Source: Escherichia coli (lineage in GTDB: Bacteria; Pseudomonadota; Gammaproteobacteria; Enterobacterales; Enterobacteriaceae). From it: a stretch of DNA of 64,000 bases. The position numbers and the translations under genes were made by a program. The first letter of the stretch is position 1, and each line of letters starts with the position of its first letter. The notes beneath the pieces were generated by a model that saw only the letters and a list, made by a program, of their open reading frames with translations, was not told the origin of the DNA and searched no databases. Where the stretch lies: assembly GCF_044324875.1 (NCBI RefSeq), contig NZ_CP172185.1. One strand, given 5' to 3'. Shown in pieces: positions 1 through 63,029 of this stretch.

Positions 1-1725
<1,725 letters not shown>

Positions 1726-1793
1726 GTCTGAATCCGGCCGACCCAAAATTTTCCCCCAAGCTTCTCCCGGTATCTTTTAAGAGTATTGATTAC

Positions 1794-3002
1794 ATGAACG
1801 ACACCGTTTTAAACGTAATCCCGGTGCCTGTACGCACTTGGGTGGCTATAGCAGCGCTCGGTATCAGTGCATTTTCGATTGTGACCAGCGAGCTTGCGCC
1901 TGTTGGCATGCTTAGTATGCTAGCAAAGGACCTGAACCAGACTGAATCGGACACGGACCTTGTCGTGACTGCATACGGCTGGGTTGGGGCTCTGGCAGCA
2001 CTTTTGTCTGGATTGATACCAGCGAGAATTTCACGTAAGTCTTTGTTAGTGACTCTTATGGTAGTGTTTGCTTTGTCTTGTGTGGCGGCGACACAGTCAT
2101 CACTCGATGACCCTATTTATGGGGGCGCGTATGACAGGCGCTTTAGCACATGGTGCTTTCTGGGCTTTGATTGGAGCAGTGGCTTCACAGCTTGTTCCGG
2201 CTGAAAAACTAGGACTGGCCACCTCAGTTATTTTTGGCGGCGTTTCGGCTGCCAGCGTTCTGGGTGTGCCACTGTCGAGTTTTATTGCGGATATGGCCGG
2301 GTGGCGGAGTGCGTTTACGGCGATTTCTCTGCTGTCACTTGCCGCCGCCTGTGCTCTATTCTGGACGCTCCCCACACTGACGGTGCCACAACCACTGAGG
2401 CTGCGTGTTTACTACGGGATATTCAAAAACCCGGTGCTCCTTTCCCTCTATGGTGCCACTGCCTGTATTATTTCGGCTCATTTTGCGGCATTCACTTACC
2501 TCCAACCACTACTGACGAAGACTCAGGAAGTACCGACGGCTTCGATTTCTGGCCTACTGCTGATGTCCGGGCTCTCCGGTCTGGCCGGAAATATCATTGC
2601 CGGAAAGCTGATCGACCGTCATATCAAAGGGCTGATTTTCGCTTCACTGCTCCTGAGCGCAGGTGCGCTCGGCATACTTGGTATGAGGAGCGCTGCACCA
2701 CTGCCTTTCTGGTTCACAGGCATACTGCTCGCAGTTTGGGGCGCGGGTATCGCCATTGTATTCGTTGGGTTGCAGACAGGTTGCTCCGTAGCGCCGGGGA
2801 TGCTGTACAACCGGCGTCAGCCATTTACGTTACAATTTTTAACGCAGCGATCGGCACCGGTGCGCTTGTGGGAGGCCAGGTATTAGCCGTAAAAGGTATT
2901 CAGGGTATGGCCTTACTTGCTGCGGGCATCATTGCATGCAGCATAGCTCTGGTCGCAATGCTGAAAAGCCCCGCGAATAAGCTCAGGCCTGAAAGGTCGT
3001 GA
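1794..3002 (+). pseudogene. MFS-type efflux transporter gene disrupted by two apparent frameshifts
   Basis: Three overlapping ORFs (1722..2204, 2068..2886, 2301..3002) in alternating frames each encode hydrophobic MFS-like segments; frame switches near 2100 and near 2815. Confidence 0.6.
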
Positions 3003-3736: not shown

Positions 3737-4599
3737 GCTTAGTCAGCCGTTGTCTCCGGGTCTCACGTGCGCAACTGCATGCCATGGCCCGTCGGTCGAA
3801 GGACTGGCAGGATCGTCGGTGCAAGCGCAAGCCTGATGATACTGACGCGCTGGCCCGTATCCATACCGTTATCGGCGATCTGCCCACCTATGGTTATCGT
3901 CGGGTATGGGCACTGCTGCGCAGACAATCAGAAACTGACGACATGGCGGTGATCAATGCCAAACGCGTATACCGCATCATGCGTCAGAATGCGCTGCTGC
4001 TTGAGCGTAAACCGGAAATACCGCCATCGAAGCGGGCGCATACAGGGAAAGTGGCCGTTGGAGAAAGTAACCAGCGGTGGTGCTCTGACGGCTTCGAGTT
4101 CAGCTGTGATAACGGTGAAAAACTGCGGGTCACGTTCGCTCTGGACTGTTGCGATCGCGAGGCACTTTACTGGGCGGCCAGTAACGGTGGATATGACAGT
4201 GAAACCGTGCAGGACGTCATGCTGGGTGCCGTGGAGCGTCGTTTCGGTAACAGCCTGCCGACATCCCCAGTTGAGTGGCTGACAGACAACGGTTCAGCCT
4301 ACCGTTCTTATCAGACGCGTCAGTTCGCCAGAATGGTAGGACTGGAGCCTAAACATACGGCGGTACGTAGCCCGGAAAGCAACGGGATGGCAGAGAGCTT
4401 CGTGAAAACGATGAAGCGCGATTACATCAGCATCATGCCGAAACCCGACGGGTTAACAGCGGTAAAGAACCTTGCGGAGGCCTTCGAACATTACAACGAA
4501 TGGCATCCGCATAGTGCACTGGGGTATCGTTCGCCACGGGAATATCTGCGGCGGCGAACCAGTAATGGGTTAAGTGATAAAAAGTGTATGGAAATATAG
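3694..4599 (+). CDS. insD: IS2 transposase OrfB (InsD), DDE integrase core
   Basis: 301-aa ORF overlapping insC in a different frame (programmed frameshift arrangement); sequence matches IS2 InsD. Confidence 0.9.
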
Positions 4600-4610
4600 G
4601 GGCCAATCCA

Positions 4611-4967
4611 ATTGCACTGTTTCGAGGCTATCCGGCGACGATAAGAACTGACCAGGGGCCGGAGTTCACTTGCCGTGCACTGGATCAATGGGCCTTTGAG
4701 CATGGTGTTGAGTTGCGCTTAATCCAGCCGGGCAAGCCAACGCAGAACGGATTTATTGAGAGCTTTAACGGACGATTTCGCGATGAATGTTTGAATGAGC
4801 TCTGGTTCAGCGATATCGTTCATGCCAGGAAAATTATTAATGACTGGCGGCAGGATTATAACGAATGCCGCCCGCACTCCACGCTGAATTATCAGACACT
4901 GTCTGAATTTGCAGCGGGCTGGAGAAAGGGTCATTCTGAGAATGAAGATTCCGACGTTACTAACTGA
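4611..4967 (+). pseudogene. C-terminal remnant of an IS3-family transposase (OrfB), 5' part absent or replaced by IS2
   Basis: Frame continuing from the IS2 right end encodes ...[58 protein letters not shown]...RPHSTLNY, the conserved C-terminal part of an IS3-family DDE transposase. Confidence 0.7.
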
Positions 4968-4980
4968 GTGTTGTATCTAA

Positions 4981-5646
4981 TCGTGGGGGCAGGTCACAGC
5001 TATACGGACACGGTCAAATAGAGCACTTGCTATAACTGATCTTAAACATCCTAAATTTGATGTTAGAGTTCAGATACATAGTTCTGCCGCAAGGTATGCA
5101 GATAAGTTAGCTGCTGAAATAGTTTCAGCATATTATGATAACTCTGAGCTGGCATATGAAAGCGATTCTCCGTTTCAATTTGGTGTTATTCGAGTTCCTC
5201 GTAACGCTACTCACTTTGAGCATTCATTATATGAAAAGTACTCAGGACTTAATAAGTTCGAGGCTCCTTTTGCTGAGGCTTTAGATAGGTCTGGTTACCC
5301 TTGGCACAGAAACCTGAGCAGTGGCGGTTTTCATATCCCACTATTGACAGAGGGTGATACAAGCTCATTTTATCCAGACTTTTTAGTATGGAAGTCAGAC
5401 CTTGTCTATTGCCTTGATACCAAGGGGGGCCATCTATTGACTGCTGCCGTAGCGCGCAAGCTTTTTAATATTCATGAAGATGGTCGGAGTAAGATTCTAG
5501 TGAGATTTATCACAGAAGGAAAGCAGACAGAGCTGCGCGGCAAAGCAACAAAGGGAGGATATACTGTATGGAAAATGAAATCTGGGCATCCTACCCCAAT
5601 TTATGTGGCGGATTTAGACAAAGCTGTTAGGGAATGTCTAAAATAG
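4981..5646 (+). pseudogene. 3' fragment of a gene of unknown function with a PD-(D/E)xK-like motif; no in-frame start for its first ~120 codons
   Basis: Frame is open from the stop at 4978..4980 to 5646 but has no ATG/GTG/TTG until 5344; translation contains YPDFLVWKSDLVYCLDTKG (PD...DxK spacing typical of restriction-endonuclease-fold nucleases). Lies immediately after the IS3-family remnant. Confidence 0.4.
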
Positions 5647-5787
5647 CGAAGCCATAGCATAGAATTTTTAATGGCATTATGATCAGGACATAAAGGACTT
5701 CATGCAGGGAAAAAATATCCCAAAAGAAACTGGTCATGTCAGCACACCAAAGGATCCTCGCCGGATCCTTTGGTTTTTCTCAGCCAC

Positions 5788-5830
5788 AATCGCTTAACGT
5801 GAGTTTTCGTTCCACTGAGCGTCAGACCCC
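5788..5830. other. 43-bp segment nearly identical to the region just upstream of the ColE1/pMB1-type replication origin RNAs
   Basis: AATCGCTTAACGTGAGTTTTCGTTCCACTGAGCGTCAGACCCC differs at one position from the pBR322/pUC sequence AATCCCTTAACGTGAGTTTTCGTTCCACTGAGCGTCAGACCCC as I recall it; flanks diverge. Confidence 0.4.
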
Positions 5831-5905
5831 TATAAACACCTTAGTGAAGTCATCCTCGCAGGTAAGGCAACACATCCGTAAGGTATTTGGCCAAATCAAA
5901 TACAA

Positions 5906-6901
5906 CTAGATTGACTCGCGGGGAAGCCAGGGACTCTCAACTATCACTTTATCCCGGTGGGTGTCACCATTGATAATGTGCAGTGTACTTAAGCGCCCAA
6001 TTTCATAATGCGGTAGCTGGACCGTGGATAATGGGGGTAAAAATAAGTTTCCAATGCCTACAAGATTGTCATAGCCAAGAACGGCAATATCCTGTGGGAT
6101 TCTGATACCCTGCGTTAACAATGTTTGATACACCATAAATGCAATACGATCGTTACCACAGATGACCGAATCAAATCGCGGTTTCCCCTGTTCGATATGC
6201 GCCAGCAACATCTCCGGAATATCTCGGTAGTGCTCATCGCCGAATTGCATATAGCAGTGCTCAAGCGTATCAGGATCGATACTGGCTTCCCTGCAGGCGC
6301 GATCAAGCCCACGACGACGACGACGCGTCGCCAGATGGTTGACGGGTAAATGCAGGCATAGAGGGCGGCTGTATCCTGCTGCCAGCAGTGCCTGTACGGC
6401 CGTATACTGGCCATGTTCATCGTCAGGTATATAGCTGGCAACCGGCTCTCCCTTGTTCTCGCAGTTGGCCAGAACGCAAGGAAGCTCCAGTAACCGGGGA
6501 GGAATACTGACTTCACGCAGCCCCATGGTAGTAAAAATGATCCCCCCGGGTCGATGGGCGAGCAGCAGGTCGACAATATCGTCAGGATTATCATCGGTAA
6601 ACATATTCACCACAAAGCTGTTCCAGCCATACGCCCGCGCGGTTTCTTCAATAGACAGCGTGATTTCTACTGAAAAAGGAGTGGTGACCGTATCCAGCGC
6701 AAGCACACCAATCGTTTTGTTCCGGGTGCCAACACGACGAATCTGCTGGGCAGAAAGGTCTGGCACATAATTTAACTGCGTGATCGCCTCCTGCACCCGA
6801 GCCAGAGTCTCAGGCTTTACGCGTTTCGGGTCATTCAGCACCCGTGAAACCGTCATGAGCGATACATTGGCCAGTTTGGCCACATCCTTTAAAGACGCCA
6901 T
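5906..6901 (-). CDS. fosR: LacI/GalR-family repressor, CscR-like (FosR-like), divergent from the transporter operon
   Basis: 331 aa; N-terminal HTH MASLKDVAKLANVSLMTVSRVLN; strong similarity across its length to the E. coli sucrose repressor CscR from memory; gene symbol by recalled synteny with the fos locus. Confidence 0.75.
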   Translation of the reverse strand: MASLKDVAKLANVSLMTVSRVLNDPKRVKPETLARVQEAITQLNYVPDLSAQQIRRVGTRNKTIGVLALDTVTTPFSVEITLSIEETARAYGWNSFVVNMFTDDNPDDIVDLLLAHRPGGIIFTTMGLREVSIPPRLLELPCVLANCENKGEPVASYIPDDEHGQYTAVQALLAAGYSRPLCLHLPVNHLATRRRRRGLDRACREASIDPDTLEHCYMQFGDEHYRDIPEMLLAHIEQGKPRFDSVICGNDRIAFMVYQTLLTQGIRIPQDIAVLGYDNLVGIGNLFLPPLSTVQLPHYEIGRLSTLHIINGDTHRDKVIVESPWLPRESI

Positions 6902-7033
6902 AGTTTTCCATTATCTGAATGCATACACCCGGTAAGGTGTTGTGAGCAAATGCGAATGCCCTATTCTAGGCACGGACACCCAGGGTTATGCAGACCACTC
7001 TGATAAATTTGAGCTAGATCTCAACATTTCAAT

Positions 7034-7045
7034 GTTAACGTTAAC
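7034..7045. promoter_or_regulatory. Candidate LacI-family operator, perfect 12-bp palindrome centred on CG
   Basis: GTTAACGTTAAC is its own reverse complement; about 100 bp upstream of the transporter start, in the divergent fosR/fosT intergenic region. Confidence 0.4.
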
Positions 7046-7095
7046 TTTTGTGATTAACATCGACAAACAAATCAAAATCGAGTGTCCCCCCAAAA

Positions 7096-7109
7096 TGATA
7101 ACGTTACCA
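7096..7109. promoter_or_regulatory. Candidate LacI-family operator (TGATAACGTTACCA)
   Basis: Near-palindrome fitting the TGnAAnCGnTTnCA pattern of LacI/GalR operators; about 35 bp upstream of the transporter ATG at 7142. Confidence 0.4.
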
Positions 7110-7141
7110 TATTAGCATATCCTTCTTACGAGATTACGTAG

Positions 7142-8380
7142 ATGAAAAAACGGCCTACTCGAAGTTACATGCTGCTCAGCGCTCTGCTGTTCTTTTTCTT
7201 TGTGACCTGGTCCTCATCAAGTTCACTGCTCTCAATCTGGCTTCACCAGGAAGTGGGGCTAAAAGCATCGGAAACCGGCATTATTTTTTCAGTATTATCC
7301 GTCTCCGCGCTCTTCGCGCAGGTCTGTTATGGCTTTATTCAGGACCGACTTGGTCTGCGCAAACATTTGTTATGGTTTATCACCGCGTTGTTGATCCTCT
7401 CCGGCCCGGCTTATCTGCTTTTTAGTTATTTGCTGAGCGTTAATATTCTGCTGGGCAGCGTATTCGGGGGCTTATTTATCGGGCTGACGTTTAATGGGGG
7501 TATCGGCGTTCTGGAGTCCTATACCGAGCGCGTCGCGCGTCAAAGTACCTTTGAGTTTGGGCGGGCACGCATGTGGGGGTCTCTGGGCTGGGCAGTTGCC
7601 ACGTTTTTTGCCGGGTTACTGTTTAATATCAACCCTGACCTTAACTTCCTGGTGGCTTCATGCTCAGGGTTAATCTTCTTCTGCCTCCTGGCCCGATTAA
7701 AGGTGGCCGCGCCGGCAAGCATGGAGAAACTCGAAATTGGCGCTAAAAAAGTTTCTCTGGAAGACGCCCTGCGTCTGCTTACTCTGCCGCGCTTCTGGGC
7801 ACTGATATTCTTCGTGGTCGGAACCTGCATTTACGGCGTATACGATCAGCAATTCCCGGTCTATTTCTCATCACAGTTCCCGACATTACGCGAAGGGAAC
7901 GAGATGTTTGGCTATTTAAACTCTTTCCAGGTCTTTCTCGAGGCCGCAGGTATGTTTTGTGCGCCGTGGCTGGTTAATCGCATTGGTGCTAAAAATGGTC
8001 TGATATTCGCAGGAATGGTGATGGCGCTGCGCATGATTACTTCAGGGCTGGTGGAAGGCCCCCTGCTTATCTCCATTACCAAACTGCTTCACGCGGTCGA
8101 ACTGCCAATATTGTTAGTCGCCATATTTAAATACAACAGTCTGAATTTCGACAAACGTCTCTCCTCCACCATTTATCTGGTGGGATTTGCCTGCACCAGC
8201 TCCGTCATTGGTACCGTATTGTCCCCGCTGGCAGGCTTTAGCTATGAGAGATTTGGCTTCGCCCAATCCTATCTGATCATGGGCATCATGGTGTTCAGCA
8301 CCACGTTTATTTCCATTTTCCTTTTGCGCTCAACTAAATCCTCATCTGAGCCATCTTTTCTGCAGCAAAAAGCTGTGTAA
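7142..8380 (+). CDS. fosT: Oligosaccharide:H+ symporter, MFS (LacY/CscB-like)
   Basis: 412 aa, 12-TM hydrophobic profile, similar to CscB sucrose permease (…FQVFLEA…, …KLLHAVELP…); first gene of a tightly spaced operon. Confidence 0.8.
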   Translation: MKKRPTRSYMLLSALLFFFFVTWSSSSSLLSIWLHQEVGLKASETGIIFSVLSVSALFAQVCYGFIQDRLGLRKHLLWFITALLILSGPAYLLFSYLLSVNILLGSVFGGLFIGLTFNGGIGVLESYTERVARQSTFEFGRARMWGSLGWAVATFFAGLLFNINPDLNFLVASCSGLIFFCLLARLKVAAPASMEKLEIGAKKVSLEDALRLLTLPRFWALIFFVVGTCIYGVYDQQFPVYFSSQFPTLREGNEMFGYLNSFQVFLEAAGMFCAPWLVNRIGAKNGLIFAGMVMALRMITSGLVEGPLLISITKLLHAVELPILLVAIFKYNSLNFDKRLSSTIYLVGFACTSSVIGTVLSPLAGFSYERFGFAQSYLIMGIMVFSTTFISIFLLRSTKSSSEPSFLQQKAV

Positions 8381-8399: not shown

Positions 8400-9833
8400 A
8401 TGACATCCTTATTAGAACAGGCTGAACAGGTGCTTGAAAAAGCACAATCCGGGATTAATCCGCGCTGGTATCCGCGCTATCACCTCGCCCCTCGCGCAGG
8501 CTGGATGAATGATCCTAATGGCCTGGTATGGTTTGACGGCTGGTATCACGCCTTTTATCAACACCATCCCTACTCCCCGAAATGGGGTCCGATGCACTGG
8601 GGGCACGCCCGAAGCAAAGATCTGGTGCATTGGGAACATTTGCCCGTCGCGCTAGCGCCGGAAGGCCCGGCGGACAAAGACGGCTGTTTCTCAGGTTCCG
8701 CCGTGGTGGACGGCGATACGCTGGCGCTCATCTATACCGGACATAAATTTCACGGCCCGTCGGACACTGACGACAACCTCTACCAGGTGCAGTGTCTGGC
8801 GACCAGTCGTGACGGCATCCATTTTGAACGGCACGGCAAGGTGATTGATACACCGCCCGGACTGCATCACTTTCGCGATCCGAAGGTGTGGCGCGAAGGT
8901 GAGTTCTGGTACATGGTTGTCGGTTCCCGCGTGGAAAATACCGGTCAGGTGCGCCTGTACCGTTCCACCGATCTCCGCGAATGGCATGACGAAGGTATTT
9001 TCGCCGAGGCTGATGAAGGCAAGGGCTTTATGTGGGAATGCCCGGATTTCTTCCCCCTGGGAGAGAAGCGTGTCCTGATGTTCTCGCCGCAGGGCATGGC
9101 GGCGGAAGGGTATCACTATCGCAACCTGTTCCAGAGCGGTTATTTACTTGGGGACTGGCAGCCAGGTCAACCGTTCACCCACAGCGGACAATTTACTGAG
9201 CTGGACCACGGCCACGACTTTTATGCCCCGCAGAGTTTCCTGACCCCGGATGGCCGACGCATTGTCATCGGGTGGCTGGATATGTGGGAATCATCGATGC
9301 CCGAACAGCAGGATGGCTGGGCCGGAATGCTCTCGCTTCCTCGCGAATTAAGCCTTGTCGATGGTCGTGTGAGAATGAAACCTGCTGCCGAAGTGACCGC
9401 GCTGCGTGGCAGCTATTATCCCACGCCCGTCCGCTGTCTGAACAATCAGAACGTCCTTGTCGCGGCAAATGCCGACGCGGTCGAAGTTCAGTTGGCATGG
9501 GATTTGAGCGCATCGACGGCTGAACAGTTTGGTATCGCGTTGGGCGACGGGTTGAGAATTTACGTCGATGATCAGGCTGGGCGTCTGGTGGTGGAGCGCC
9601 GCTATCCGGAATATTCGCTGGAAGGCACTCGCAGTATTCCGCTTCCAGCAGACAGCGTTCTGTCACTGCGAATTTTTATTGACCGCTCATCGGTGGAAGT
9701 TTTTGTTAACGATGGTGACGCTTGCTTAAGCAGTCGTATTTATCCGCAGCCGGGCGAGCGTGATATTTCATTGTTTGCAAATCTGGGGAAGGCCTCATTA
9801 TACGATGCGGGATACTGGTCTTTAGATAAATAA
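8400..9833 (+). CDS. fosGH1: GH32 beta-fructofuranosidase / sucrose-6-phosphate hydrolase-like, no signal peptide (cytoplasmic)
   Basis: 477 aa with GH32 motifs WMNDPNGL, FRDPKV and WECPD; 19 bp after fosT. Confidence 0.8.
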   Translation: MTSLLEQAEQVLEKAQSGINPRWYPRYHLAPRAGWMNDPNGLVWFDGWYHAFYQHHPYSPKWGPMHWGHARSKDLVHWEHLPVALAPEGPADKDGCFSGSAVVDGDTLALIYTGHKFHGPSDTDDNLYQVQCLATSRDGIHFERHGKVIDTPPGLHHFRDPKVWREGEFWYMVVGSRVENTGQVRLYRSTDLREWHDEGIFAEADEGKGFMWECPDFFPLGEKRVLMFSPQGMAAEGYHYRNLFQSGYLLGDWQPGQPFTHSGQFTELDHGHDFYAPQSFLTPDGRRIVIGWLDMWESSMPEQQDGWAGMLSLPRELSLVDGRVRMKPAAEVTALRGSYYPTPVRCLNNQNVLVAANADAVEVQLAWDLSASTAEQFGIALGDGLRIYVDDQAGRLVVERRYPEYSLEGTRSIPLPADSVLSLRIFIDRSSVEVFVNDGDACLSSRIYPQPGERDISLFANLGKASLYDAGYWSLDK

Positions 9834-9925: not shown

Positions 9926-11191
9926 ATGGATGAAAGCGTAATACCTCAAAATTGCATTACCTCGAAAGATAAAAATATATTTGTTCCAGGAAAACAGATG
10001 CTGGCATTAATGGTGACATTAGCAGCATTTCCTGCCATTGCTGAAGACGTTACAGGAAACTATCAAAGCTATTTTCAGGATGAATCAGACACCAACGGTA
10101 CGAGTGTTTCATTAGCCAATCAAGGCAATGAAAAATCATCCCTTAGCGCTTCATCTTCTCCGGTTGCTGCAGGTCAAAAACCTGAACTCACGACCTCGTC
10201 AAAGCCAGTGACGTTATCGGCACCAATGGAGAATAAGAAAACTGCAGTAGAAAAACGTCCTAAAGGGGATAACCCTAAAGATGTCAGTCTGTTGCGTTTA
10301 AGGCAGGAAGATCCGCCGGTTCACTGGAACAGTATTGGTCGTAACATGGAAGTGGGTAGCTTGCATGGGAACATTGGATCTCAGATAGAAATTGACGATG
10401 TTCGCTGGAGCAATAATAAGAAAAACAGCGGCAAGTTTAAACTCGCCACCATTCAGGCTTTTTTAAGGCACGATGAATTGCCTAACTGGTATTTCGGTTT
10501 CTGGAATGCCAGAGAAGACAGTTATAAAGGACAGTTCAGTAATCAGGACTATAAAGGCACCAATACCATCAATGAATTTTTTGTGGGCCATATTTTCGAA
10601 ACCTGGCGGGGTAATATCGGTACGGAAGTCATGGTCGGCTCCGAAACGGCAACTAAACGCTGGAAAAACCGGTTCAAAGTCTGGCAGGACCTGCGACTGT
10701 CCAACAAATGGAGCCTGGCCGGATACGCGTATGGCGAGTATCAGCCTCAGGGGAACGAACCGGGGAATGGCGATCTGGAGCAGTACATTTTCGAAATTGA
10801 GCCAGCCATTCAATACCGCGTGAATCCGGATCTCGGACTCTATTTGCGGCCCTATTATTACCATAACCGCCAGGAGCGTCAGAGCTGGGGCGACATTGTA
10901 GAAGAAGAATGGAAAGTCACGGCCGGGCTCTGGCGAAACTGGTATCCATTATTAACCTCCCTGTATGTTGGATTTGGCCAGGACAAAATAGATAACGCCA
11001 GCAATGCCAGCGAAGTTTTCTATGACGGCCGTTATAAGTTTATCGGTGGAACGCTGAGTTATCCGGTATTTGGTGAGGTGCGATTATATGGTGAATTCAA
11101 GGCACAATTTACGAAAGAAACCGGACTTTGGACATCAACCGGTCACTCATGGAATCCGTTTACCGTGGTTGGCGTGAATTATAACTTCTGA
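9926..11191 (+). CDS. fosX: Predicted outer-membrane beta-barrel protein (putative oligosaccharide channel); start probably internal near 9995
   Basis: Signal-peptide-like MLALMVTLAAFPAIA, Ser/Thr-rich linker, alternating-hydrophobic beta-strand pattern, C-terminal ...VGVNYNF with terminal Phe; paralogous to the ORF at 12712..13725. Confidence 0.6.
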   Translation: MDESVIPQNCITSKDKNIFVPGKQMLALMVTLAAFPAIAEDVTGNYQSYFQDESDTNGTSVSLANQGNEKSSLSASSSPVAAGQKPELTTSSKPVTLSAPMENKKTAVEKRPKGDNPKDVSLLRLRQEDPPVHWNSIGRNMEVGSLHGNIGSQIEIDDVRWSNNKKNSGKFKLATIQAFLRHDELPNWYFGFWNAREDSYKGQFSNQDYKGTNTINEFFVGHIFETWRGNIGTEVMVGSETATKRWKNRFKVWQDLRLSNKWSLAGYAYGEYQPQGNEPGNGDLEQYIFEIEPAIQYRVNPDLGLYLRPYYYHNRQERQSWGDIVEEEWKVTAGLWRNWYPLLTSLYVGFGQDKIDNASNASEVFYDGRYKFIGGTLSYPVFGEVRLYGEFKAQFTKETGLWTSTGHSWNPFTVVGVNYNF

Positions 11192-12711: not shown

Positions 12712-13725
12712 ATGAAAAACTATCATGCCCTGTCTGTTATTTTTACTCTTATGTTACCCGCGCTGGCGAATGCGAGCATGAGCATCATGAAGGATCCGTC
12801 TGGAAAGGTTATCGCCGTGGACCCTTGGTCATATCTTGATGAAGATGTTATGTGGACCTCAGCCCGCTCCTCCAATCCTGCCGGTGGCCGCGTTCATGGC
12901 CAACTGAAAATGAAATATGCCATTGAGGATAATAACTGGCGTAACAGCCATTTCCACAACGGGAATGATTCGCTGACGTTTGTACAAGGTGTGATGCGGC
13001 ACGATGCGTTACCCGGTTGGTATCTGGCTTTCTCTGAGGGCAGAACCACTAACTATAACGGGACGTGGGAGGATCAGTCTTACCTCAGCCAAAACCAGTG
13101 GACTCAGTTGATCATCGGCCATGAATATTTTTACAAGCGTCTGCGCTATGGCTGGGATGTGATGGGAGGAAGCGCCTCAATCGAAGACCGCTGGCAAGGC
13201 CGCGTTAAGTTCTTTACCGATCTTCGGGTTACGGATAATTTCTCATTCTTTAACTACCTGTATCAGCAGATCGATCACCGGCGCAGCGGTGGGTCGCAAA
13301 ACGACCGTGACGTGCGTTCATTTCAGATTGAGCCAGGCGTGCAATACATTATTAATAACAACACCGGTGTCTGGTTCCGCCAGCAGTTCGCATCTGCCAT
13401 TTTAGACAGGGCGCAGTGGGGCGATATCGACGAAAAAAGCTGGACCACGTCAGTCGGCGTCTGGCGAAACTGGGGGAAGTTATCCACAACGCTCAGCGGC
13501 GGTTATGGTCATTATAAGAAATACAATGCGCAACCTGAGGATGGCGAAGTCTTTCAGAATACCCGCAATCGCTTCCTGAAGGTATCGGCAAATTATCCTT
13601 TGACCTCTCGTTTTACCGTGTCCGGAGAAGTTACTGGTTCGTTGATCAAACAGAACGGAAGTTGGGTCACTAACGGTGAGGCCATTACCACTGAGTATAA
13701 GCTGATGCTGGATTATAACTTTTAA
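12712..13725 (+). CDS. fosY: Predicted outer-membrane beta-barrel protein, paralogue of fosX
   Basis: 337 aa; signal peptide MKNYHALSVIFTLMLPALANA; shared motifs with the 9926 ORF (HDxLPxWY, WGDIxExxWxxxxGxWRNW); C-terminal ...LMLDYNF. Confidence 0.6.
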   Translation: MKNYHALSVIFTLMLPALANASMSIMKDPSGKVIAVDPWSYLDEDVMWTSARSSNPAGGRVHGQLKMKYAIEDNNWRNSHFHNGNDSLTFVQGVMRHDALPGWYLAFSEGRTTNYNGTWEDQSYLSQNQWTQLIIGHEYFYKRLRYGWDVMGGSASIEDRWQGRVKFFTDLRVTDNFSFFNYLYQQIDHRRSGGSQNDRDVRSFQIEPGVQYIINNNTGVWFRQQFASAILDRAQWGDIDEKSWTTSVGVWRNWGKLSTTLSGGYGHYKKYNAQPEDGEVFQNTRNRFLKVSANYPLTSRFTVSGEVTGSLIKQNGSWVTNGEAITTEYKLMLDYNF

Positions 13726-15393: not shown

Positions 15394-15454
15394 TTACTGA
15401 TTTAGTGTATGATGGTGATTTTAAGTAAGCGACTCGTCAGAACCGTATTGATAT

Positions 15455-17026
15455 TTACTGAGAGCTCAGATCAACTTTCCAGGGCAACAGATCGCGTACC
15501 CGGTTTGCCGGCCAGTCCTGGATATGTTCAATGACGTAACGCAGCCACTTTTCTGGCTCCACATTGTTCAGACGGCATGTGCCGATCAGCGAGTACAACA
15601 CCGCCGCATGTTCACCACCGCTGTCGGAACCCGCGAACATCCAGTTTTTCCGGCCTACGGCCACTCCCCGTAAGGCGTTCTCTGCGATGTTGTTGTCGAT
15701 TTCCACCCAGCCATTACTGCAGTACACGTTCAGTGCATCCCACTGTTTCAGCAGGTATGCGAACGCTTTTGCCGTATCTGAGTGACGCGACAGTGTTTTC
15801 ATCTGTTGCTGTATCCAGTCATACAGTGACTGCATCAGTGGCGCGGCTCTGGCTTTTCTTGCCGCCAGACGCTGTTCTGCTGAACAGCCCCGGACCTCTG
15901 CCTCGATGGCATACAGTTCACCGATACGCTGCAGGGCTTCCGTGGTGATGTAGGTGGGCGCTCTTGCATGCACATCGTGGATTTTTCTCCGGGCATGAGC
16001 CATACACGCGGCTTCCGTTATTCTGCCGGATTCGTATAACGCCCGGTAACCACCGTAAGCATCGGCCTGAAGCACACCGCTGTAACCGGCCAGGTGATTT
16101 TGTGGATGGATACCTTTCCGGTCCGGACTGTACGCGAACCAGACCGCCGGGGGCATCTGTGAACCGGCGTTACGGTCATCACGGACGTAGACCCACAGCC
16201 GGGCTGTCCGGGTTTTACCGCTGCCCGGCTCCTGGACCGGGACGGGGATATCATCAGCATGGACTTTACCGGGCATCAGCACATACTGGCGCAGGACGTC
16301 ATACAGCGGCTCCAGCAGTTCAGCAACAGCACCTGTCCAGCGCCCCAGTGTGGCACGGCTCAGCTCCACTCCCTGACGACGGTATATTTCTGACTGGCGG
16401 TATAACGGCAGATGGTCTGCATATTTCCCGGTGACAACATGGGCCAGAAGCCCCGCTCCGGCATAACTGCGTGCAATGGGTTTTGAAGGTACTGGTGCCT
16501 GCACGATATGGTCGCACCGGCAACAGGCCTGTTTCGGACGTTGTGTTTCGATAACCTTAAAGGCGCTGCTGATAAGCTCCAGTTGCTCTGACACATCACA
16601 TCCCAGAGAACTGAGTTCACCACCACAGGCAGGACAGCATTCCTCTTCCGGCCGGATAACCCGGGTTTCACGGGGAAGTGAGGCCGGTAACGGTTTACGG
16701 GCTGAAGACTGGCGCAGGGCGGATGGCAGTACCGGGTCATATTGCTCACCCAGCGTTTCCGCCATTTCTTCCTGAAGTGCGCTGATTCGCTCCTGTGCTT
16801 CCTGTATCTGCCGTTCGGTTTTTGCACGAAGTTTTTCTGAGCTTTTACCGAACTGCATACGTTGCAGTTTCGCAACCAGCGCCTTCAGCCGGTTGATTTC
16901 GGAAGCATAAGCCGCCACCCGCTGTGAGAGCAGGCGGTTGTATTCAGCCATCTGGCGGATGGTGTCCTGTTGCGTCTGCAACAGTGCCCGCAGGCGGGCG
17001 TTCTCATGAGCAAGTGAGGTGTCCAT
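15455..17026 (-). CDS. tnpC: IS66-family transposase TnpC
   Basis: 523 aa with N-terminal coiled-coil/leucine-zipper region, CxxC zinc motif and DDE core typical of IS66 transposases. Confidence 0.85.
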
Positions 17027-17045
17027 ATCCTCACTTTACAACGGG

Positions 17046-17393
17046 TTATATGCGGATTCCAGCGCGTTCCGTTCGTTTCGGGTGCTTCCAGTTGATACCT
17101 TCAAGAAGCATGGATAACTGAGCCGGAGTAAGGTGCACCTTGCCGTCACGGGTGACTGGCCAGACGAAGCGGCCCCGCTCCAGGCGTTTGGTGAAGAGGC
17201 ACAGTCCGTCACTGTCAGCCCACAACACTTTTATCTGGTCACCCCGGCGTCCGCGGAAGATGAACAGGTGTCCGGAGAACGGGTCATCCTTCAGGACGTT
17301 CTGAACTTTTGATGCCAGGCCGTTAAAGCCATTTCGCATATCGGTGATACCTGCAACCAGCCAGATACGCGAACCTGCAGGGAGAGATATCAT
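17046..17393 (-). CDS. tnpB: IS66-family Orf2 (TnpB)
   Basis: 115 aa; MISLPAGSRIWLVAGITDMRNGFNGL... is the conserved IS66 Orf2. Confidence 0.85.
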   Translation of the reverse strand: MISLPAGSRIWLVAGITDMRNGFNGLASKVQNVLKDDPFSGHLFIFRGRRGDQIKVLWADSDGLCLFTKRLERGRFVWPVTRDGKVHLTPAQLSMLLEGINWKHPKRTERAGIRI

Positions 17394-18070
17394 CAGTGGC
17401 TGCTCCCTTTTATTTCGCGGATAAGTGTCTGTAATAACGCCGGCGTCAGTTTACCTTTAAGCCTGAGAGTTCCGGCCGGCAGAACCAGCTCACAACACAG
17501 ACTGTCGGACGGTGTATTTATCTGCTCTGGTTCCTGTGCGGGGGCCGGGATTTTATTATCCGGCTCCGGCGTTAACGTCACGGGAAGCAGTGCCGGCATA
17601 TTTTTTCCGGAAGGCAGCAGGCCACCTTTCCGGTATTGATGGCGCCAGTTGAAGAGCAGGTTATCGTTGATTCCGTTTTCCCGGGCGATCTGCGCCACAC
17701 AGGCTCCGGGCTGCAGTGACTGCTCCACTAAGGCGATTTTAAACTCATAAGGGAAGTTGGGCCGCCGGGGACGTTTTTTTACCACGGGGGCTTCGGATAT
17801 AACGGTGCTTTCAGGACGTACGACTGGTACCGTGGAAAATTGTCCGTAAAGGCAGGCATCAAGTTCCTGCTCCGACATGCCTGCGGGCAAAGGCCACGAA
17901 AGGCCAGCTCTCCGAAAGCGCACGAACATACTACAAACTGTTGATTTTGGTACACCCAGGCGACGCCCGGCCACAACCCGGGGTAAATGTTCTTCAAAGT
18001 GAAGACGTAAAGCTTCAGTGATCCAGGTCCGGTGTTTCATACGATAGTGTCCATTAAAAATGATGGACAT
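17393..18070 (-). CDS. tnpA: IS66-family accessory protein (TnpA); true start uncertain, probably internal
   Basis: ORF immediately upstream of and overlapping tnpB (ATGA overlap) in the canonical IS66 arrangement. Confidence 0.6.
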   Translation of the reverse strand: MSIIFNGHYRMKHRTWITEALRLHFEEHLPRVVAGRRLGVPKSTVCSMFVRFRRAGLSWPLPAGMSEQELDACLYGQFSTVPVVRPESTVISEAPVVKKRPRRPNFPYEFKIALVEQSLQPGACVAQIARENGINDNLLFNWRHQYRKGGLLPSGKNMPALLPVTLTPEPDNKIPAPAQEPEQINTPSDSLCCELVLPAGTLRLKGKLTPALLQTLIREIKGSSH

Positions 18071-18140
18071 TATTTTTGTAGAGCCGGAGGAAACAGACCA
18101 GACGGTTTAAATGAGCCGGTTACGATTTTAAGGTGCTTGC

Positions 18141-27795: not shown

Positions 27796-27890
27796 TGGCG
27801 GAAGATCACAGGAGTCGAACCTGCCCGGGACCGCTGGCGGCCCCAACTGGATTTGAAGTCCAGCCGCCTCACCGGAGACGACGATCTTCC
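27796..27890 (-). tRNA. selC: tRNA-Sec (selenocysteine), anticodon UCA
   Basis: Minus-strand sequence GGAAGATCGTCGTCTCCGGTGAGGCGGCTGGACTTCAAATCCAGTTGGGGCCGCCAGCGGTCCCGGGCAGGTTCGACTCCTGTGATCTTCCGCCA matches E. coli selC; long variable arm. Confidence 0.95.
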
Positions 27891-31893: not shown

Positions 31894-32187
31894 TCTATTG
31901 AAGAATGCCGGATACGAATGGTTTTGTGTCGTATCCGGTAAATAATCTCACATCTGGTAATAAATATTTCTTCCATCGTATTTGCGAGCATGATCACGAT
32001 TATTCATCACGAAAATGTGATCTGTGCCGAAAAATATCTATTAACCGCCCCGTTTTGTTTTATACATGTCCGGACTACGGACAGATTTTAGTATTGTTGT
32101 GAAATTATTCTGCTTTATATTTACCCTCAGAGATGGCAACTGAAGCTCTTCCACATGGGGCTTCTTAATCTGTGATAAGGGTAAAAA

Positions 32188-33741
32188 ATGCAAATGATTA
32201 CCTCGCGACAAAACAGATTATTACGATTCCTTTTACCACGAAGGGAATATACGACTATTGTTACGATTGCCGGCTATTTAAATGTTTCGGAAAAAACCAT
32301 TCAACGTGATTTACGTTTACTTGAGCAATGGCTGGAACAATGGCGAATAACCGTTGAGAAGCGTGCTGGCGCAGGTGTGATGTTAGACTCGAAGAATATT
32401 ACTGATTTGCTGCATCTTGATCATTTGTTGGGAGCAGAATGTGAAGAGATTGATGGTGTAATGAATAATGCCAGGCGCGTTAAAATAGCGTCGCAGTTAT
32501 TAATTGAAACACCGAATGAAACGTCGATCAGTAAATTGTCAGAGCGCTATTTTATCAGTGGAGCCTCTATTGTTAATGACCTGAGAGTGATTGAGTCCTG
32601 GCTTGCGCCGTTGGGGTTATCATTGATCCGCAGCCCAAGTGGTACGCATATTGAAGGTAGTGAAGGGCAAGTCCGACAGGCAATGGCATTACTGATTAAC
32701 GGCATTATTAACCATAATGAGCCGCAAGGTGTCGTGTATTCACGTCTGGATCCCGGAAGTTATAAAGCATTAGTCCATTATTTTGGAGAAGAAGAGGTGT
32801 TATTTGTCCAGTCATTGTTACTGGATATGGAAAATGAATTAAGTTGGTCTTTGGGAGAGCCTTATTACGTTAACATTTTTACTCACATCCTTATTATGAT
32901 GTATCGCAACACGCACGGGAATGCGTTATCCAGAGAAGAAGATCAAACCAGGCAATATGATGAAAATATCTTTAATGTTGCCAGTCAGATGATTCATAAG
33001 ATAGAACAACGAATTGCACATACATTGCCCGATGATGAAGTCTGGTTTATTTATCAATATATCATTTCATCAGGTGTGGCGATTGATGGACAAAAAGATG
33101 TTAGCATTATTTCACATATGCAGGCCAGCAATGAAGCGCGTCTGATTACCTGGCGTTTAATTACGGTATTCAGTGACATCGTGGACTGCGATTTTAGTGA
33201 AGACAGCGCATTATATGATGGCTTGTTGGTTCATATTAAGCCGCTGATTAACCGACTAAATTATCGCATTCATATCCGTAATCCATTGCTGGAAGATATT
33301 AAAGCAGAATTAGCGGATGTCTGGCGGTTGACGCAATATGTGGTGAATCAGGTATTTAAAACCTGGGGTGAGAATGCAGTGAGCGAGGATGAAGTAGGTT
33401 ACCTGACCGTTCATTTTCAGGCTGCGATGGAGCGGCAAATTGCCCGTAAACGTGTATTACTGGTCTGTTCAACCGGAATCGGAACTTCGCATCTACTGAA
33501 AAGCCGTATTCTGCGAGCATTTCCTGAATGGACGATTGTTGATGTTATTTCAGCAGCGAATTTATCACAGGTTTTGCCTGACAATATCGAACTGATTATT
33601 TCGACCATTAATTTGCCTACAGTCACTATGCCGGTCGCTTATGTTACCGCTTTTTTTAATGATGCCGATATTAAGCGAGTCACTGAAATGGTGATTACGG
33701 GAAAATTACATCATGCGACATCTCGGGTCGTTGAAATTTAA
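32188..33741 (+). CDS. PRD-domain transcriptional activator with HTH and PTS EIIB/EIIA-like regulatory domains (MtlR/LicR type); first gene of the frz-like operon
   Basis: 517 aa; N-terminal HTH (TIAGYLNVSEKTIQRDLRLLEQ), central PRD-like region, C-terminal EII-like domains. Confidence 0.7.
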   Translation: MQMITSRQNRLLRFLLPRREYTTIVTIAGYLNVSEKTIQRDLRLLEQWLEQWRITVEKRAGAGVMLDSKNITDLLHLDHLLGAECEEIDGVMNNARRVKIASQLLIETPNETSISKLSERYFISGASIVNDLRVIESWLAPLGLSLIRSPSGTHIEGSEGQVRQAMALLINGIINHNEPQGVVYSRLDPGSYKALVHYFGEEEVLFVQSLLLDMENELSWSLGEPYYVNIFTHILIMMYRNTHGNALSREEDQTRQYDENIFNVASQMIHKIEQRIAHTLPDDEVWFIYQYIISSGVAIDGQKDVSIISHMQASNEARLITWRLITVFSDIVDCDFSEDSALYDGLLVHIKPLINRLNYRIHIRNPLLEDIKAELADVWRLTQYVVNQVFKTWGENAVSEDEVGYLTVHFQAAMERQIARKRVLLVCSTGIGTSHLLKSRILRAFPEWTIVDVISAANLSQVLPDNIELIISTINLPTVTMPVAYVTAFFNDADIKRVTEMVITGKLHHATSRVVEI

Positions 33742-33767
33742 TGTCAGAATTTTATGAGGTATGACGA

Positions 33768-34238
33768 ATGGACATAACAAAAATCCTGAATACGAATCGC
33801 GTTATTTTAGATATGCAAGCGACGAATAAAGCGGAGGCGATTGAAGAATTAACTAATCTTCTCAAAAAAGATGGTGCGATCGATTGTCGGGAAACCTTTA
33901 TTAAAGATGTCTGGCAGCGCGAAGCGGAAGGCTCGACTGGTTTTGAAAATCATATTGCGATCCCGCATGGTAAATCTTCTGCGGTAATTAATACCACGCT
34001 GGCTATCGGGCGTACCCGGCAGGATATTCCCTGGGAAACACTGGATGGCAGTAGCGTACGCTGTATTATTTTATTTGCGGTACGTCTTGAAGATCAAAAT
34101 ACCACTCATATCCGTTTACTTTCCCAGGTCGCGGGCGCGCTTGCAGATGATGACATCATAGCGCAATTGCTGGTTGAGACGAGCCCGCAAAAAATCATTG
34201 ATCTCTTTAGTCAGTATGCACAATCCGATGTCTACTAA
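33768..34238 (+). CDS. PTS EIIA component, fructose/mannitol family
   Basis: 156 aa with the conserved IAIPHGK histidine-phosphorylation motif. Confidence 0.8.
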   Translation: MDITKILNTNRVILDMQATNKAEAIEELTNLLKKDGAIDCRETFIKDVWQREAEGSTGFENHIAIPHGKSSAVINTTLAIGRTRQDIPWETLDGSSVRCIILFAVRLEDQNTTHIRLLSQVAGALADDDIIAQLLVETSPQKIIDLFSQYAQSDVY

Positions 34239-34255
34239 ATAACAGGGAGTATATC

Positions 34256-34570
34256 ATGAATATTGTCTGTGTTGCCGCCTGCACGGCGGGTATTGCTCAC
34301 ACCTATATTGCTCGTGAAAAGTTAATTAAAGGGGCAAAAGCACTGGGCCACACCATTAAAGTTGAAACCCAGGGAACCATTGGTACAGAAAACGAATTAC
34401 AGGCGGCAGAGATCTCTGCTGCTGACGTCGTGATTCTTGCTGTGGATGTGAAAATAAAAGGAGAAGAACGTTTTACCAATAAACGCATTGTGCGAGTAAA
34501 GACAGAGATCGTCATTAAATCGCCCGTTCAATTTCTTGAAAAGGTCGAAAAATCACTGGGAAATAAATGA
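34256..34570 (+). CDS. PTS EIIB component, fructose-type
   Basis: 104 aa; N-terminal Cys-containing motif VCVAACTAGIAHTY. Confidence 0.75.
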   Translation: MNIVCVAACTAGIAHTYIAREKLIKGAKALGHTIKVETQGTIGTENELQAAEISAADVVILAVDVKIKGEERFTNKRIVRVKTEIVIKSPVQFLEKVEKSLGNK

Positions 34571-34594
34571 TCCTTATACTGGAGGGATCTTAAT

Positions 34595-35686
34595 ATGAAA
34601 GAAAATGAAATTCCGGTTTCACAGGAAATTAAAAAACATTTATTAACCGGCATCTCGTGGATGATACCCCTTATTGTGGCCGCCGGGATATGTATTGCGT
34701 TGGGGCAAGTTCTTGGCGGTACAGATGTTGGTGAAAAAACAGGAACAATCCCGTGGATGCTTAATCAGATTGGCGGCTGGGGAATGGGGCTGATTGTGCC
34801 GCTGATTAGCGCGGCAATTGCCTATTCTATTGCCGATCGTCCCGGATTTGCCCCGGGCCTGATTGTCGGCTTTCTCTGTGGGCAAATCCATACCGGATTT
34901 ATTGGCGGTATGTTGGGTGGTTTCCTGGTGGGCTACACCATTTTGCTACTTAAACGCTATATTCGCCTGCCGCAGTCGATGCAAGGACTCATGCCAATCA
35001 TGGTGTTGCCGGTATTAAGCACCATTATCGGTGGGCTGTTAATGATGACGCTGATTGGTAAACCCATCGCCTGGTTACAAGAAGCACTGATTCATTTGCT
35101 CGAGTCGATGCAGGGCGGATCGCGCTTCCTGATGGGGGCCATACTTGGCGCGATGGCAACCTTCGATTTCGGTGGTCCGGTCAACAAAACCATGTCGCTG
35201 TTTTCCGATGGCTTGCTGGTCAGTGGCGTCTACGGACCAGAAGCCGTGAAATTTGTCGGCTCAATCATCCCTCCGTTTGGCATCACACTTTCGTTCTTAC
35301 TGACACGCCATAAATACACCCGTGCGGAGCGCGAGGCGCTGAAAGCCGCGTTTCCGATGGGGATCTGCATGATCACTGAAGGAGTCATTCCGATCGCCGC
35401 GCGTGACCTGTTGCGAGTAGTGGGATCTTGTGTGGTGGCATCGGCGGTCGCGGGCGGCTTAATCATGGTGTGGGGCGTGGAGAGTCCGGTTCCACATGGC
35501 GGCATGTTTGTTGTGCCTCTGTTCACCCATCCTCTGCTGTTTTGCCTGGCGCTGGGTATAGGCACGGTGATTTGTGGCGTGATGCTTTCACTCTGGAAGA
35601 AACCGGTAACGGAACGCGACGAAGAGTTTGACGAACTGAGCGATCAAAAGCTGAAAGATGAAGAGATCATTTTCACCCTCGAATAA
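34595..35686 (+). CDS. PTS EIIC permease, fructose-type
   Basis: 363 aa, polytopic membrane protein directly after the IIB gene. Confidence 0.75.
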   Translation: MKENEIPVSQEIKKHLLTGISWMIPLIVAAGICIALGQVLGGTDVGEKTGTIPWMLNQIGGWGMGLIVPLISAAIAYSIADRPGFAPGLIVGFLCGQIHTGFIGGMLGGFLVGYTILLLKRYIRLPQSMQGLMPIMVLPVLSTIIGGLLMMTLIGKPIAWLQEALIHLLESMQGGSRFLMGAILGAMATFDFGGPVNKTMSLFSDGLLVSGVYGPEAVKFVGSIIPPFGITLSFLLTRHKYTRAEREALKAAFPMGICMITEGVIPIAARDLLRVVGSCVVASAVAGGLIMVWGVESPVPHGGMFVVPLFTHPLLFCLALGIGTVICGVMLSLWKKPVTERDEEFDELSDQKLKDEEIIFTLE

Positions 35687-35697
35687 CCGGAGGCCCT

Positions 35698-36549
35698 ATG
35701 TTTGCCGATATGAAAAGTATGGTGATGAAAGCCTGGCATGAACATTACGCCTTGCTGGCGATCAACTGTATGAATCTGGAAAGTGCTCGCGCAGCTATCC
35801 GCGTGGCGGAGAAGAATCGCGCTCCGATCATTCTCAATCTCTATCAGGGGCATCTGGCGCATTTTCCTGCACCCGTCGCGGCGGCAGTGGTTAAAACGCT
35901 CGCGGAATCTGCCTCAGTACCGGTCACTCTGGCGCTTGATCATGGCAAAAATCCGGACTGTATTCGTCAGGCGTTTCGTGCTGGTTTCAGCGGATTAATG
36001 ATTGATGCTTCTGCTTTTCCCTTGGAGGAAAACGTGCGCCAGACCAAGGCGGTGGTGGAACTCGCCGCCAGCGCGCAGCTCTGCGTTGAAGGCGAACTGG
36101 GCCATCTGGCAGATGCGCCGCGTTACGACCAGGCCGCCAATGCAGACATGATGACGCAACCCACTGATGTGGAAGCGTTTATCGCGCAGACAGGCATTGA
36201 TCTACTGGCCGTTTCGGTAGGCACGGCGCACGGCATGTACGCGCCTGGTGTTGTACCTGCTATTGATTTTCAGCGTCTGGCGGAGATTTTCCACTGCTCG
36301 AGCGTGCCTCTGGCATTACATGGTTGTAGCGGTACGCCGTTCGATCAGCTCCAGCTCTGTACGACTCTGGGGGTAGCAAAAATCAACGTGGGGGCGGCCA
36401 TTTTTGAACGGGGGAAATCCGCGCTCCTGCATACCCTCTGTCACGATATATCCATTGAACTGGTGGACGCGCTGAAAGCTATGGAACTGGCCTTCGAAGA
36501 AGCGATTACACCGTATTTACAGGCGAGCGGCTCTATCGGCAAAGCCTGA
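35698..36549 (+). CDS. Class II ketose-bisphosphate aldolase (tagatose/fructose-1,6-bisphosphate aldolase family, GatY/KbaY-like)
   Basis: 283 aa; conserved LALDHG and LALHGCSG metal-binding motifs. Confidence 0.8.
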   Translation: MFADMKSMVMKAWHEHYALLAINCMNLESARAAIRVAEKNRAPIILNLYQGHLAHFPAPVAAAVVKTLAESASVPVTLALDHGKNPDCIRQAFRAGFSGLMIDASAFPLEENVRQTKAVVELAASAQLCVEGELGHLADAPRYDQAANADMMTQPTDVEAFIAQTGIDLLAVSVGTAHGMYAPGVVPAIDFQRLAEIFHCSSVPLALHGCSGTPFDQLQLCTTLGVAKINVGAAIFERGKSALLHTLCHDISIELVDALKAMELAFEEAITPYLQASGSIGKA

Positions 36550-36629
36550 TTCATTTTCTGTCATGGCCTTTATGCCAGTGCAATAACGCACCGGCAGGGC
36601 GGACTACACGCTGAAACTGGAGATTTAAC

Positions 36630-37490
36630 ATGTTAGTTTCGATGAAAGAATTACTGCAACCTACCCGCCAGCACGGCTTTGCCATTGGCGCATTTAATGT
36701 GGCGGATAACTGTTTCCTTCGCGCAGTCGTGGATGAAGCAGAAGCGACAAATACTCCGGCGATTATTGCCATCCATCCCAGCGAACATGATTTTGTGGGC
36801 GATGCCTTTTTCGCTCACGTTCGCGAAATTACCCAGCGTAGTCCGGTCCCGTTTGTACTGCACCTCGATCATGGTGCCTCTGTAGAGCATGTTTTGCGTG
36901 CGATTCGCTGCGGATTTACCTCAGTAATGATCGACGGTTCGCTGCTGCCGTATGAAGAAAACGTGGCGCTGACCGCAGAAGTGGTTCGCCTCGCTCACGC
37001 GGTTGGAGTGTCGGTTGAGGGTGAACTGGGAACCATCGGACAAACAGGAACGTCGGTAGAAGGTGGTGTTTCACAAGTGACCTACACAGATCCGGCGCAG
37101 GCCGCCGATTTTATTGCTCGTACAGGTGCCGACACTCTGGCTGTGGCGATTGGTACAGCGCATGGCATCTATCCAAAAGGGATGCAGCCGAAGCTGCAAA
37201 TGGACATTTTGCGCGACATTGCCGGACGTATTGATATTCCGCTGGTGCTACACGGTGGTTCGGCAAACCCGGACGCGGAGATTGCTGAATCAGTTACGCT
37301 CGGCGTCGGCAAAATCAATATCTCCAGCGATATGAAATACGCCTATTTCCAGAAAGTGCGTGAAATTCTCGCTAAAGAGAGCTGGTGGGACCCGAACGTC
37401 ATCTATCCGGATGCGATTAACGCGGCGCGGGAAGTCATTCGCCACAAAATGAAACTGTTCGGTTCGCTCGGTAAAGCATCACTGTACTAA
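36630..37490 (+). CDS. Class II ketose-bisphosphate aldolase, second paralogue
   Basis: 286 aa; VLHLDHGAS and LVLHGGSA motifs. Confidence 0.8.
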   Translation: MLVSMKELLQPTRQHGFAIGAFNVADNCFLRAVVDEAEATNTPAIIAIHPSEHDFVGDAFFAHVREITQRSPVPFVLHLDHGASVEHVLRAIRCGFTSVMIDGSLLPYEENVALTAEVVRLAHAVGVSVEGELGTIGQTGTSVEGGVSQVTYTDPAQAADFIARTGADTLAVAIGTAHGIYPKGMQPKLQMDILRDIAGRIDIPLVLHGGSANPDAEIAESVTLGVGKINISSDMKYAYFQKVREILAKESWWDPNVIYPDAINAAREVIRHKMKLFGSLGKASLY

Positions 37491-37537
37491 GCCAGAAGGG
37501 CGGGGTGACCCGCCTTTTACGCAACAAGGAACGAGAT

Positions 37538-39131: not shown

Positions 39132-39173
39132 TAGCGGGGACGCTAACGTTGATATCCGTTAGCGCCCGCGTAT

Positions 39174-63017: not shown

Positions 63018-63029
63018 GGCGGTAGCGTG
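63018..63029 (+). promoter_or_regulatory. ops element (GGCGGTAGCGTG) within the JUMPstart leader of the waaQ operon
   Basis: Exact ops consensus about 85 bp upstream of the waaQ start; known RfaH recruitment site. Confidence 0.8.

Follow-up and report, generated by a model that had tools for sequence, protein, structure and literature searches.

The window, i.e., the whole 64,000-nucleotide stretch of Escherichia coli DNA analyzed here (NZ_CP172185.1), contains a genomic island whose integration site is the tRNA-Sec gene selC (27800..27890, minus strand); a tyrosine recombinase gene adjoins selC in the collinear annotation of S51. Toward the left of the window lies fosR (5906..6901, minus strand), which encodes the LacI-family repressor of the fos operon. 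This gene is intact, and its sequence is identical to that in the RefSeq records of BEN2908 and S51. The role of fosR in the fos (fructooligosaccharide) operon has been described (PMC3325963). The 0.9 kb next to fosR form an unannotated gap in islands of the AGI-3 type, and this gap is filled by an 835-bp piece of mobile DNA (4996..5830, plus strand), which abuts the right-hand part of the insertion sequence ISSen4 (4611..4996, plus strand) at its left edge. The piece consists, from left to right, of the 3' part of a restriction gene (4996..5646), a terminator-like hairpin (5746..5779), and a 38-bp inverted repeat (5793..5830), and ends against the pentanucleotide TATAA (5831..5835), beyond which the DNA of the fos locus begins.

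The segment at 5788..5830, which reads AATCGCTTAACGTGAGTTTTCGTTCCACTGAGCGTCAGACCCC, first drew attention through its resemblance to cloning vectors. The initial annotation had described it as a match to pBR322-type plasmids with a single differing base and abrupt divergence thereafter, placed between a nuclease-like fragment and a fos-like regulator, and both the match and its position hold. The 43-mer shares 42 of 43 bases with the pBR322/pUC-type sequence AATCCCTTAACG...GACCCC, the sole mismatch being at 5792 (G in the window, C in the vector), and it lies between the fragment and FosR as described. Our vector reference was a stretch of pBR322/pUC type, identical at 350 of 350 positions to the vector-derived record U36911.1. 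In a BLAST comparison with the window, the similarity of this reference reaches only 5784..5830 (45/47; 47 nt, 95.7%) and stops right after 5830. The vector match of the 43-mer is far beyond chance, yet with the right reference the similarity to plasmid DNA extends over 835 bp (4996..5830) and not 43 bp.

The outer 38 bases of the segment (5793..5830, minus strand; GGGGTCTGACGCTCAGTGGAACGAAAACTCACGTTAAG) match a Tn3-type terminal inverted repeat (IR) exactly (38/38), with the outer end (GGGG) at 5830 and the transposon interior to the left. IRs of 38 bp are a hallmark of the Tn3 family, whose members produce AT-rich target duplications of 5 bp, display target immunity, and are capable of one-ended transposition (PMC4133298). 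The 38-mer is present as one copy with 0 mismatches in the window, where a pattern search for it found no second IR, and 100 dinucleotide-preserving shuffles of the window yielded no match at up to 3 mismatches. It occurs as an inverted pair in two plasmid loci, on an E. coli IncN plasmid (locus L003; 7135..7172 on the plus and 12798..12835 on the minus strand), where it bounds a derivative of 5,701 bp, and on a C. portucalensis plasmid (locus L010; 2487..2524 on the plus and 10798..10835 on the minus strand), where it bounds an element of 8,349 bp. The homology of the window to more than 30 plasmids ends at the outer base of the IR (match ends range from 5830 to 5836), and a three-way alignment with two of the plasmids diverges immediately past GACCCC. 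With a 38-bp IR of the GGGG...TAAG type whose outer base is the limit of shared DNA, 5793..5830 is the end of a Tn3-family element.

The parent of this end can be named. In a search of the plasmid collection with 4960..5840, 31 records cover 80% or more of the query, and the matches listed run from window position 4996 to 5830-5833 at approximately 98-100% identity, most of them ending exactly at 5830. Two plasmid copies align with the window in full collinearity from 4996 to 5830, with complete divergence on both sides. In these searches the transposon carrying the block was found almost only on plasmids, where the 835 bp are the 3' end of a gene for a DEAD/DEAH helicase of 791 aa, with genes for a DNA methyltransferase (647 aa) and a resolvase (182 aa) upstream. 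As judged from the proteins of the IncN plasmid, the helicase belongs to Pfam ResIII and PADLOC REase_III, the methyltransferase matches N6_N4_Mtase and many type III Mod models (best 1e-76), and the resolvase has the Pfam domains Resolvase and HTH_7. The full-length reference is the copy on the C. portucalensis plasmid, which measures exactly 8,349 bp from IR to IR and encodes tnpA-tnpR-mod-res, a 3-kb Tn3-family transposase gene completing the set. Tn7442 has been described as a Tn3-family transposon of 8,349 bp with a restriction-modification (R-M) cargo of type III and the reported target CCGCAG, located within Tn1999.7 on IncL blaOXA-48 plasmids; according to that description, it has the same transposase module as Tn1 (PMC9664867). 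Based on length, gene content, and host list, we infer that the C. portucalensis copy is Tn7442. The window block 4996..5830 corresponds to positions 7515..8349 of the 8,349 positions of this copy and is 99.76% identical to it, with 2 mismatches (5444 and 5791). The 43-mer is hence the 38-bp IR plus five inner bases of a truncated Tn7442 copy.

Both plasmid copies show features of their own. The full-length copy is flanked by GTAAT (2482..2486) on one side and TATTC (10836..10840) on the other, i.e., by no 5-bp duplication, a sign that the copy may later have been rearranged or have recombined with another. The element on the IncN plasmid (NZ_OW967008.1; 7135..12835 of the locus) is a 5,701-bp Tn7442 derivative that lacks element positions 93..2736 and thereby most of tnpA, of which approximately 100 N-terminal codons with a DUF4158 match are left. 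This derivative has perfect IRs at both ends and CATTT on both flanks.

Within the remnant, the last 216 codons and the stop of res, the gene for the type III restriction subunit, occupy 4996..5646 (plus strand), as seen from their translation and from the plasmid homolog. This open frame has no start codon and no helicase domain, and carries a PD-(D/E)xK-like motif (YPDF...CLDTKG), so that the label of a nuclease-like fragment in the initial annotation was a fair one for the C-terminal part of Res. The 216-aa fragment gave no match against Pfam and PADLOC, and its identity therefore rests on the full-length plasmid homolog. Downstream of the res stop, a terminator scan and RNA folding revealed a terminator-like hairpin with a 12-bp stem and a 5-nt loop followed by TTTTT (5746..5779, plus strand); the hairpin proper (5746..5774) folds with -20.5 kcal/mol (z = -3.97) and is conserved in the plasmid copies. 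No other Tn7442 sequence was found in the 64-kb window beyond element positions 7515..8349; the missing 7.5 kb of the element comprise the other IR, tnpA, tnpR, mod, and codons 1-575 of res. With one IR and neither a transposase nor a resolvase gene, the remnant is not an intact autonomous Tn3-family transposon.

The insertion site can be read from related loci that lack the element. TATAA at 5831..5835, the presumed target, lies 75 bp beyond the fosR stop (70 bp separate the two), and the filled right junction reads GAGCGTCAGACCCCTATAAACACCTTAGTG. Among 5,426 complete E. coli genomes, 38 have the fos flank (5831..7130), which lies on the chromosome in 32 cases and on a plasmid in six. At 99% identity or more, the flank also occurs in 43 entries of the plasmid collection, whose hosts are E. 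coli, Salmonella, and Klebsiella michiganensis; this count includes one misfiled chromosome, NZ_CP134663.1. This record (4,902,913 bp, E. coli from a gull cloaca) is chromosome-sized, was filed as a plasmid, and agrees with the window at 100% over 3773..7130; numbers drawn from the collection are to be read with this in mind. A query spanning the junction (5650..6010) matched the filled form in 31 E. coli genomes, all of them chromosomal, whereas the match begins only at query position 182 (window position 5831) in five plasmids and in the chromosome of S43. In the plasmid collection, the misfiled chromosome is the only match to the filled junction; none was found on a true plasmid.

Four loci with an empty site were compared: those on plasmid pLR-25_1 (L006), on a plasmid of EC1722-1 (L007), on plasmid pNDM-M121 (L009), and on the S43 chromosome (L008), the last being a 95% variant of the locus. 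None of them has the IR. When the first two are aligned to the window, identity starts exactly at TATAA (5831), and the sequences further left are unrelated to it. To the left of the target, the four empty sites share 168-170 bp (4382..4551 in the pLR-25_1 locus, approximately 8831..9000 in the other three), a flank that is absent from the 64-kb window; the left target flank has thus been deleted there. Of the presumed 5-bp duplication, the right copy, TATAA, stands at the empty-site breakpoint, and the left copy was deleted along with the left end. The lost left junction is predicted to have read ...CAACAGTGATCGTTATAA followed by GGGGTCTGACGCTCAG. The exact empty-site breakpoint points to Tn3-type transposition at TATAA rather than to another kind of joining. 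The fixed junction of IR and TATAA distinguishes the fos module of the chromosomal islands (filled) from its plasmid-borne form (empty), and suggests a single insertion as the origin of all chromosomal AGI-3 fos modules, the plasmids having kept the ancestral empty site.

The four empty fos loci lie in unrelated contexts (IS1, recombinase/traX, hypothetical genes). Left of the target they agree over exactly 168-170 bp and differ beyond, so the fos module has the same left boundary in all four. In S43, copies of ISKpn26 (IS5-like) flank the module.

The other edge of the remnant was made by ISSen4. The window retains the right-hand 386 bp of this IS3-family element (IS positions 837..1222), 99.5% identical to the intact ISSen4 of S51 and with rve_3/rve integrase-core domains in 4614..4967; according to the annotation the fragment is itself interrupted at about 4611 by ISEc27, as in BEN2908. 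Its right terminus, ...GTGGGGGCAGGTCA (ending GGTCA), abuts the left edge of the remnant at 4996. In every genome sampled, this ISSen4 terminus adjoins the remnant, whose length is 835 bp (window, S51, BEN2908, and 510016), 474 bp (SCU-316), 178 bp (SW070917), or 147 bp (GDSC2BY4G), and the junction GACCCC|TATAA is invariant. These four lengths are best read as one insertion followed by nested ISSen4-adjacent deletions, and the series documents the stepwise erosion of a Tn7442 copy by ISSen4.

The DNA to the left of ISSen4 varies among the genomes (loci L011-L015) and includes a hydroxyacid dehydrogenase fragment, DUF4942, DUF932, or McrC, so that the series around this single IS comprises rearrangements as well as nested deletions. 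In S51 (L011), the intact ISSen4 is flanked by CAGC on both sides (3771..3774 and 4997..5000), as in a 4-bp target duplication, and the DNA left of it is unrelated to Tn7442 (best E = 1.7). The CAGC pair may be a coincidence, or ISSen4 may have inserted at a pre-existing truncation junction.

Taken together, we are highly confident that the 43-mer is the end of a truncated Tn7442 copy that was inserted at TATAA beside fosR, was cut by ISSen4, and persists as a relic. In its history, an element of the Tn7442 type inserted at the AT-rich TATAA with its res/IR end toward fosR, presumably once, in an ancestor of the fos module of the selC island (AGI-3). ISSen4, which abuts the remnant, has removed everything leftward, including the other IR and the original left target flank, and later deletions adjacent to ISSen4 probably shortened the remnant further in some lineages.

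The identity of the 38-bp IR to that of the classical blaTEM transposons raises the question of whether the remnant could derive from Tn1, Tn2, or Tn3 instead of Tn7442, the more so as Tn7442 has the transposase module of Tn1 (PMC9664867). We consider this very unlikely: past the IR, only nine more bases match the blaTEM side, two of them mismatched, whereas the match to Tn7442 runs on for 797 further bases at 99.8% and includes res. Solo IRs of the Tn3 family and miniature elements made of IRs only are also known (PMC4133298), and the segment could in principle be such a solo IR or a Tn3-derived miniature (TIME-like) element that moved by itself. Yet the 64 kb hold a single IR, 797 bp of Tn7442 interior continue directly from it, and on the left the remnant ends at the terminus of ISSen4 and not at a second IR, all of which makes a self-moved element extremely improbable.

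An equally improbable origin is the one first proposed for the segment, a fragment of a ColE1/pMB1-type replicon from upstream of RNA I/RNA II, left by recombination between the island and a plasmid. It draws on the 42/43 identity to a vector sequence that precedes the start of RNA II by approximately 60 bp. Natural ColE1 (NC_001371), however, lacks the 38-mer even with 3 mismatches allowed; the end of its colicin lysis gene occupies that position and directly precedes GTAGAAAAGAT (origin-proximal sequence GTAGAAAAGATTAAAGGATC...). The Rfam scan that places RNA I at 645..749 of ColE1 gave no match to RF00106 (RNAI) or related families in the window at the gathering threshold, nor any such match in 4900..6100 at a relaxed E <= 10, and BLAST of the whole of ColE1 against the whole window returned chance-level matches only (best E = 1.3), none of them near 5800. 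The vector itself is a composite at this very point: bases 43-89 of the stretch match window 5784..5830, bases 90-259 match ColE1 582..751 (98.8%), and the change of partner from window to ColE1 coincides exactly with the outer end of the IR. In addition, nearly all sampled natural blaTEM plasmids, which are mostly large conjugative plasmids and not of the ColE1 type, bear the same sequence, the match to the vector stretch running from the end of blaTEM to position 180-191, where position 180 is the outer end of the IR; only 39 records, which are vector-like, run on into the origin. Because the vector switches partner at the IR end and the matches of the blaTEM plasmids stop there, the 43-mer is a Tn3-type end and not replicon DNA. 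pBR322 carries this 38-bp end since one end of Tn3 was brought in with its bla segment, beside the pMB1 origin, and the window resembles pBR322 because that segment, derived from Tn3, kept an identical 38-bp end. Contamination by a cloning vector or a chimeric assembly, against which the initial annotation had cautioned, is likewise ruled out: although most common cloning vectors contain the 43-mer, the identical junction with both flanks recurs in the complete chromosomes of 31 independent E. coli genomes, which differ in laboratory, host, and country of origin, the vector similarity covers only 47 nt at 95.7%, the match is embedded in 835 bp of seamless transposon DNA, of which the adjoining 797 bp are non-vector, and no bla or ori sequence follows it.

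The broader proposal of the initial annotation, that part of the island had passed through or recombined with a ColE1-type plasmid, is accordingly to be divided. The link to plasmids as such finds support in a transposon that is almost plasmid-only and in a fos locus that occurs on plasmids; the ColE1/pMB1 replicon as its source is refuted.

As for function, the 835-bp remnant is most likely a relic without any, judging from its gene content. Having a single end and genes for neither transposase nor resolvase, it should be unable to transpose as a unit; nor should it encode a restriction or modification activity. A functional type III R-M system is absent from the window, which has no mod and in which res is reduced to 216 codons without a start. 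Reasoning by analogy with the family, there is a slim chance that the solo IR could be bound by the transposase of a Tn1, Tn2, Tn3, or Tn7442 on a resident plasmid, and that this would confer target immunity on the fos region or permit one-ended transposition of the DNA to its left; roughly one in two complete E. coli genomes contains blaTEM transposons. It is also conceivable that the putative terminator ends transcripts that leave ISSen4 toward the 3' end of fosR.

Two further segments distinguish the window from the otherwise near-identical island of S51. A 2.7-kb segment (15425..18124) is absent at that position in S51 and is found elsewhere in the island of BEN2908, where it is annotated as an IS66-family element (tnpA/tnpB/tnpC, pseudogenized); the difference is a rearrangement between the islands. 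Approximately 7.2 kb between yicI and yicH (31916..39173), missing in S51, encode a PRD/HTH regulator, PTS EIIA and EIIC, two class-II fructose-bisphosphate aldolases, a ROK kinase, and a D-lyxose-isomerase-like protein, a set that we take to resemble the 'frz' operon of ExPEC. Close to its end (62991..63029, plus strand), the window carries a JUMPstart element.

The chromosomal remnant adds one more truncated copy of an already known transposon. It is a commonplace scar left by mobile DNA and represents no new category. Tn3-type ends have been familiar since the 1970s-80s, and the name Tn7442 dates from 2022. The remnant beside fosR is without annotation in the RefSeq records of BEN2908 and S51, and neither a Tn3 element nor a remnant is mentioned in the fos paper (PMC3325963) or in the BEN2908 genome paper. 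The main value of the result is that of a correction, which leaves the understanding of Tn3-family transposition and of fos function unchanged: matches to a "vector" or "ColE1 origin" in chromosomes can be Tn3-type ends, and are then signs neither of ColE1 ancestry nor of contamination.

Compared with known systems, the remnant follows the textbook pattern of IS-truncated transposon relics in genomic islands, with one fixed and one variable junction, and does not differ from it in any notable way. With the ColE1/pMB1 origin region it shares nothing beyond the juxtaposition of the two in pBR322: that region has RNA I/RNA II, whereas the window has neither these nor any ColE1 similarity, and ColE1 in turn lacks the 38-mer. 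The right end of Tn3/Tn1/Tn2 as found in pBR322/pUC is closer, with the same 38-bp IR, 45/47 identity over 5784..5830, and a terminator hairpin at the equivalent spot just inside the IR. Yet the interior next to the IR is type III res in the window and blaTEM in the vector, and the exterior is fos-locus DNA in the window and the pMB1 origin in pBR322/pUC. Closest of all is Tn7442, with which the window shares the 3' part of res, the terminator hairpin, the 38-bp IR, and the same element boundary. In comparison with the full transposon, the window keeps only the last 10%, without tnpA, tnpR, mod, the 5' part of res, and the second IR, and whereas known Tn7442 is plasmid-borne, the copy beside fosR is chromosomal, set in the selC island and truncated by ISSen4.
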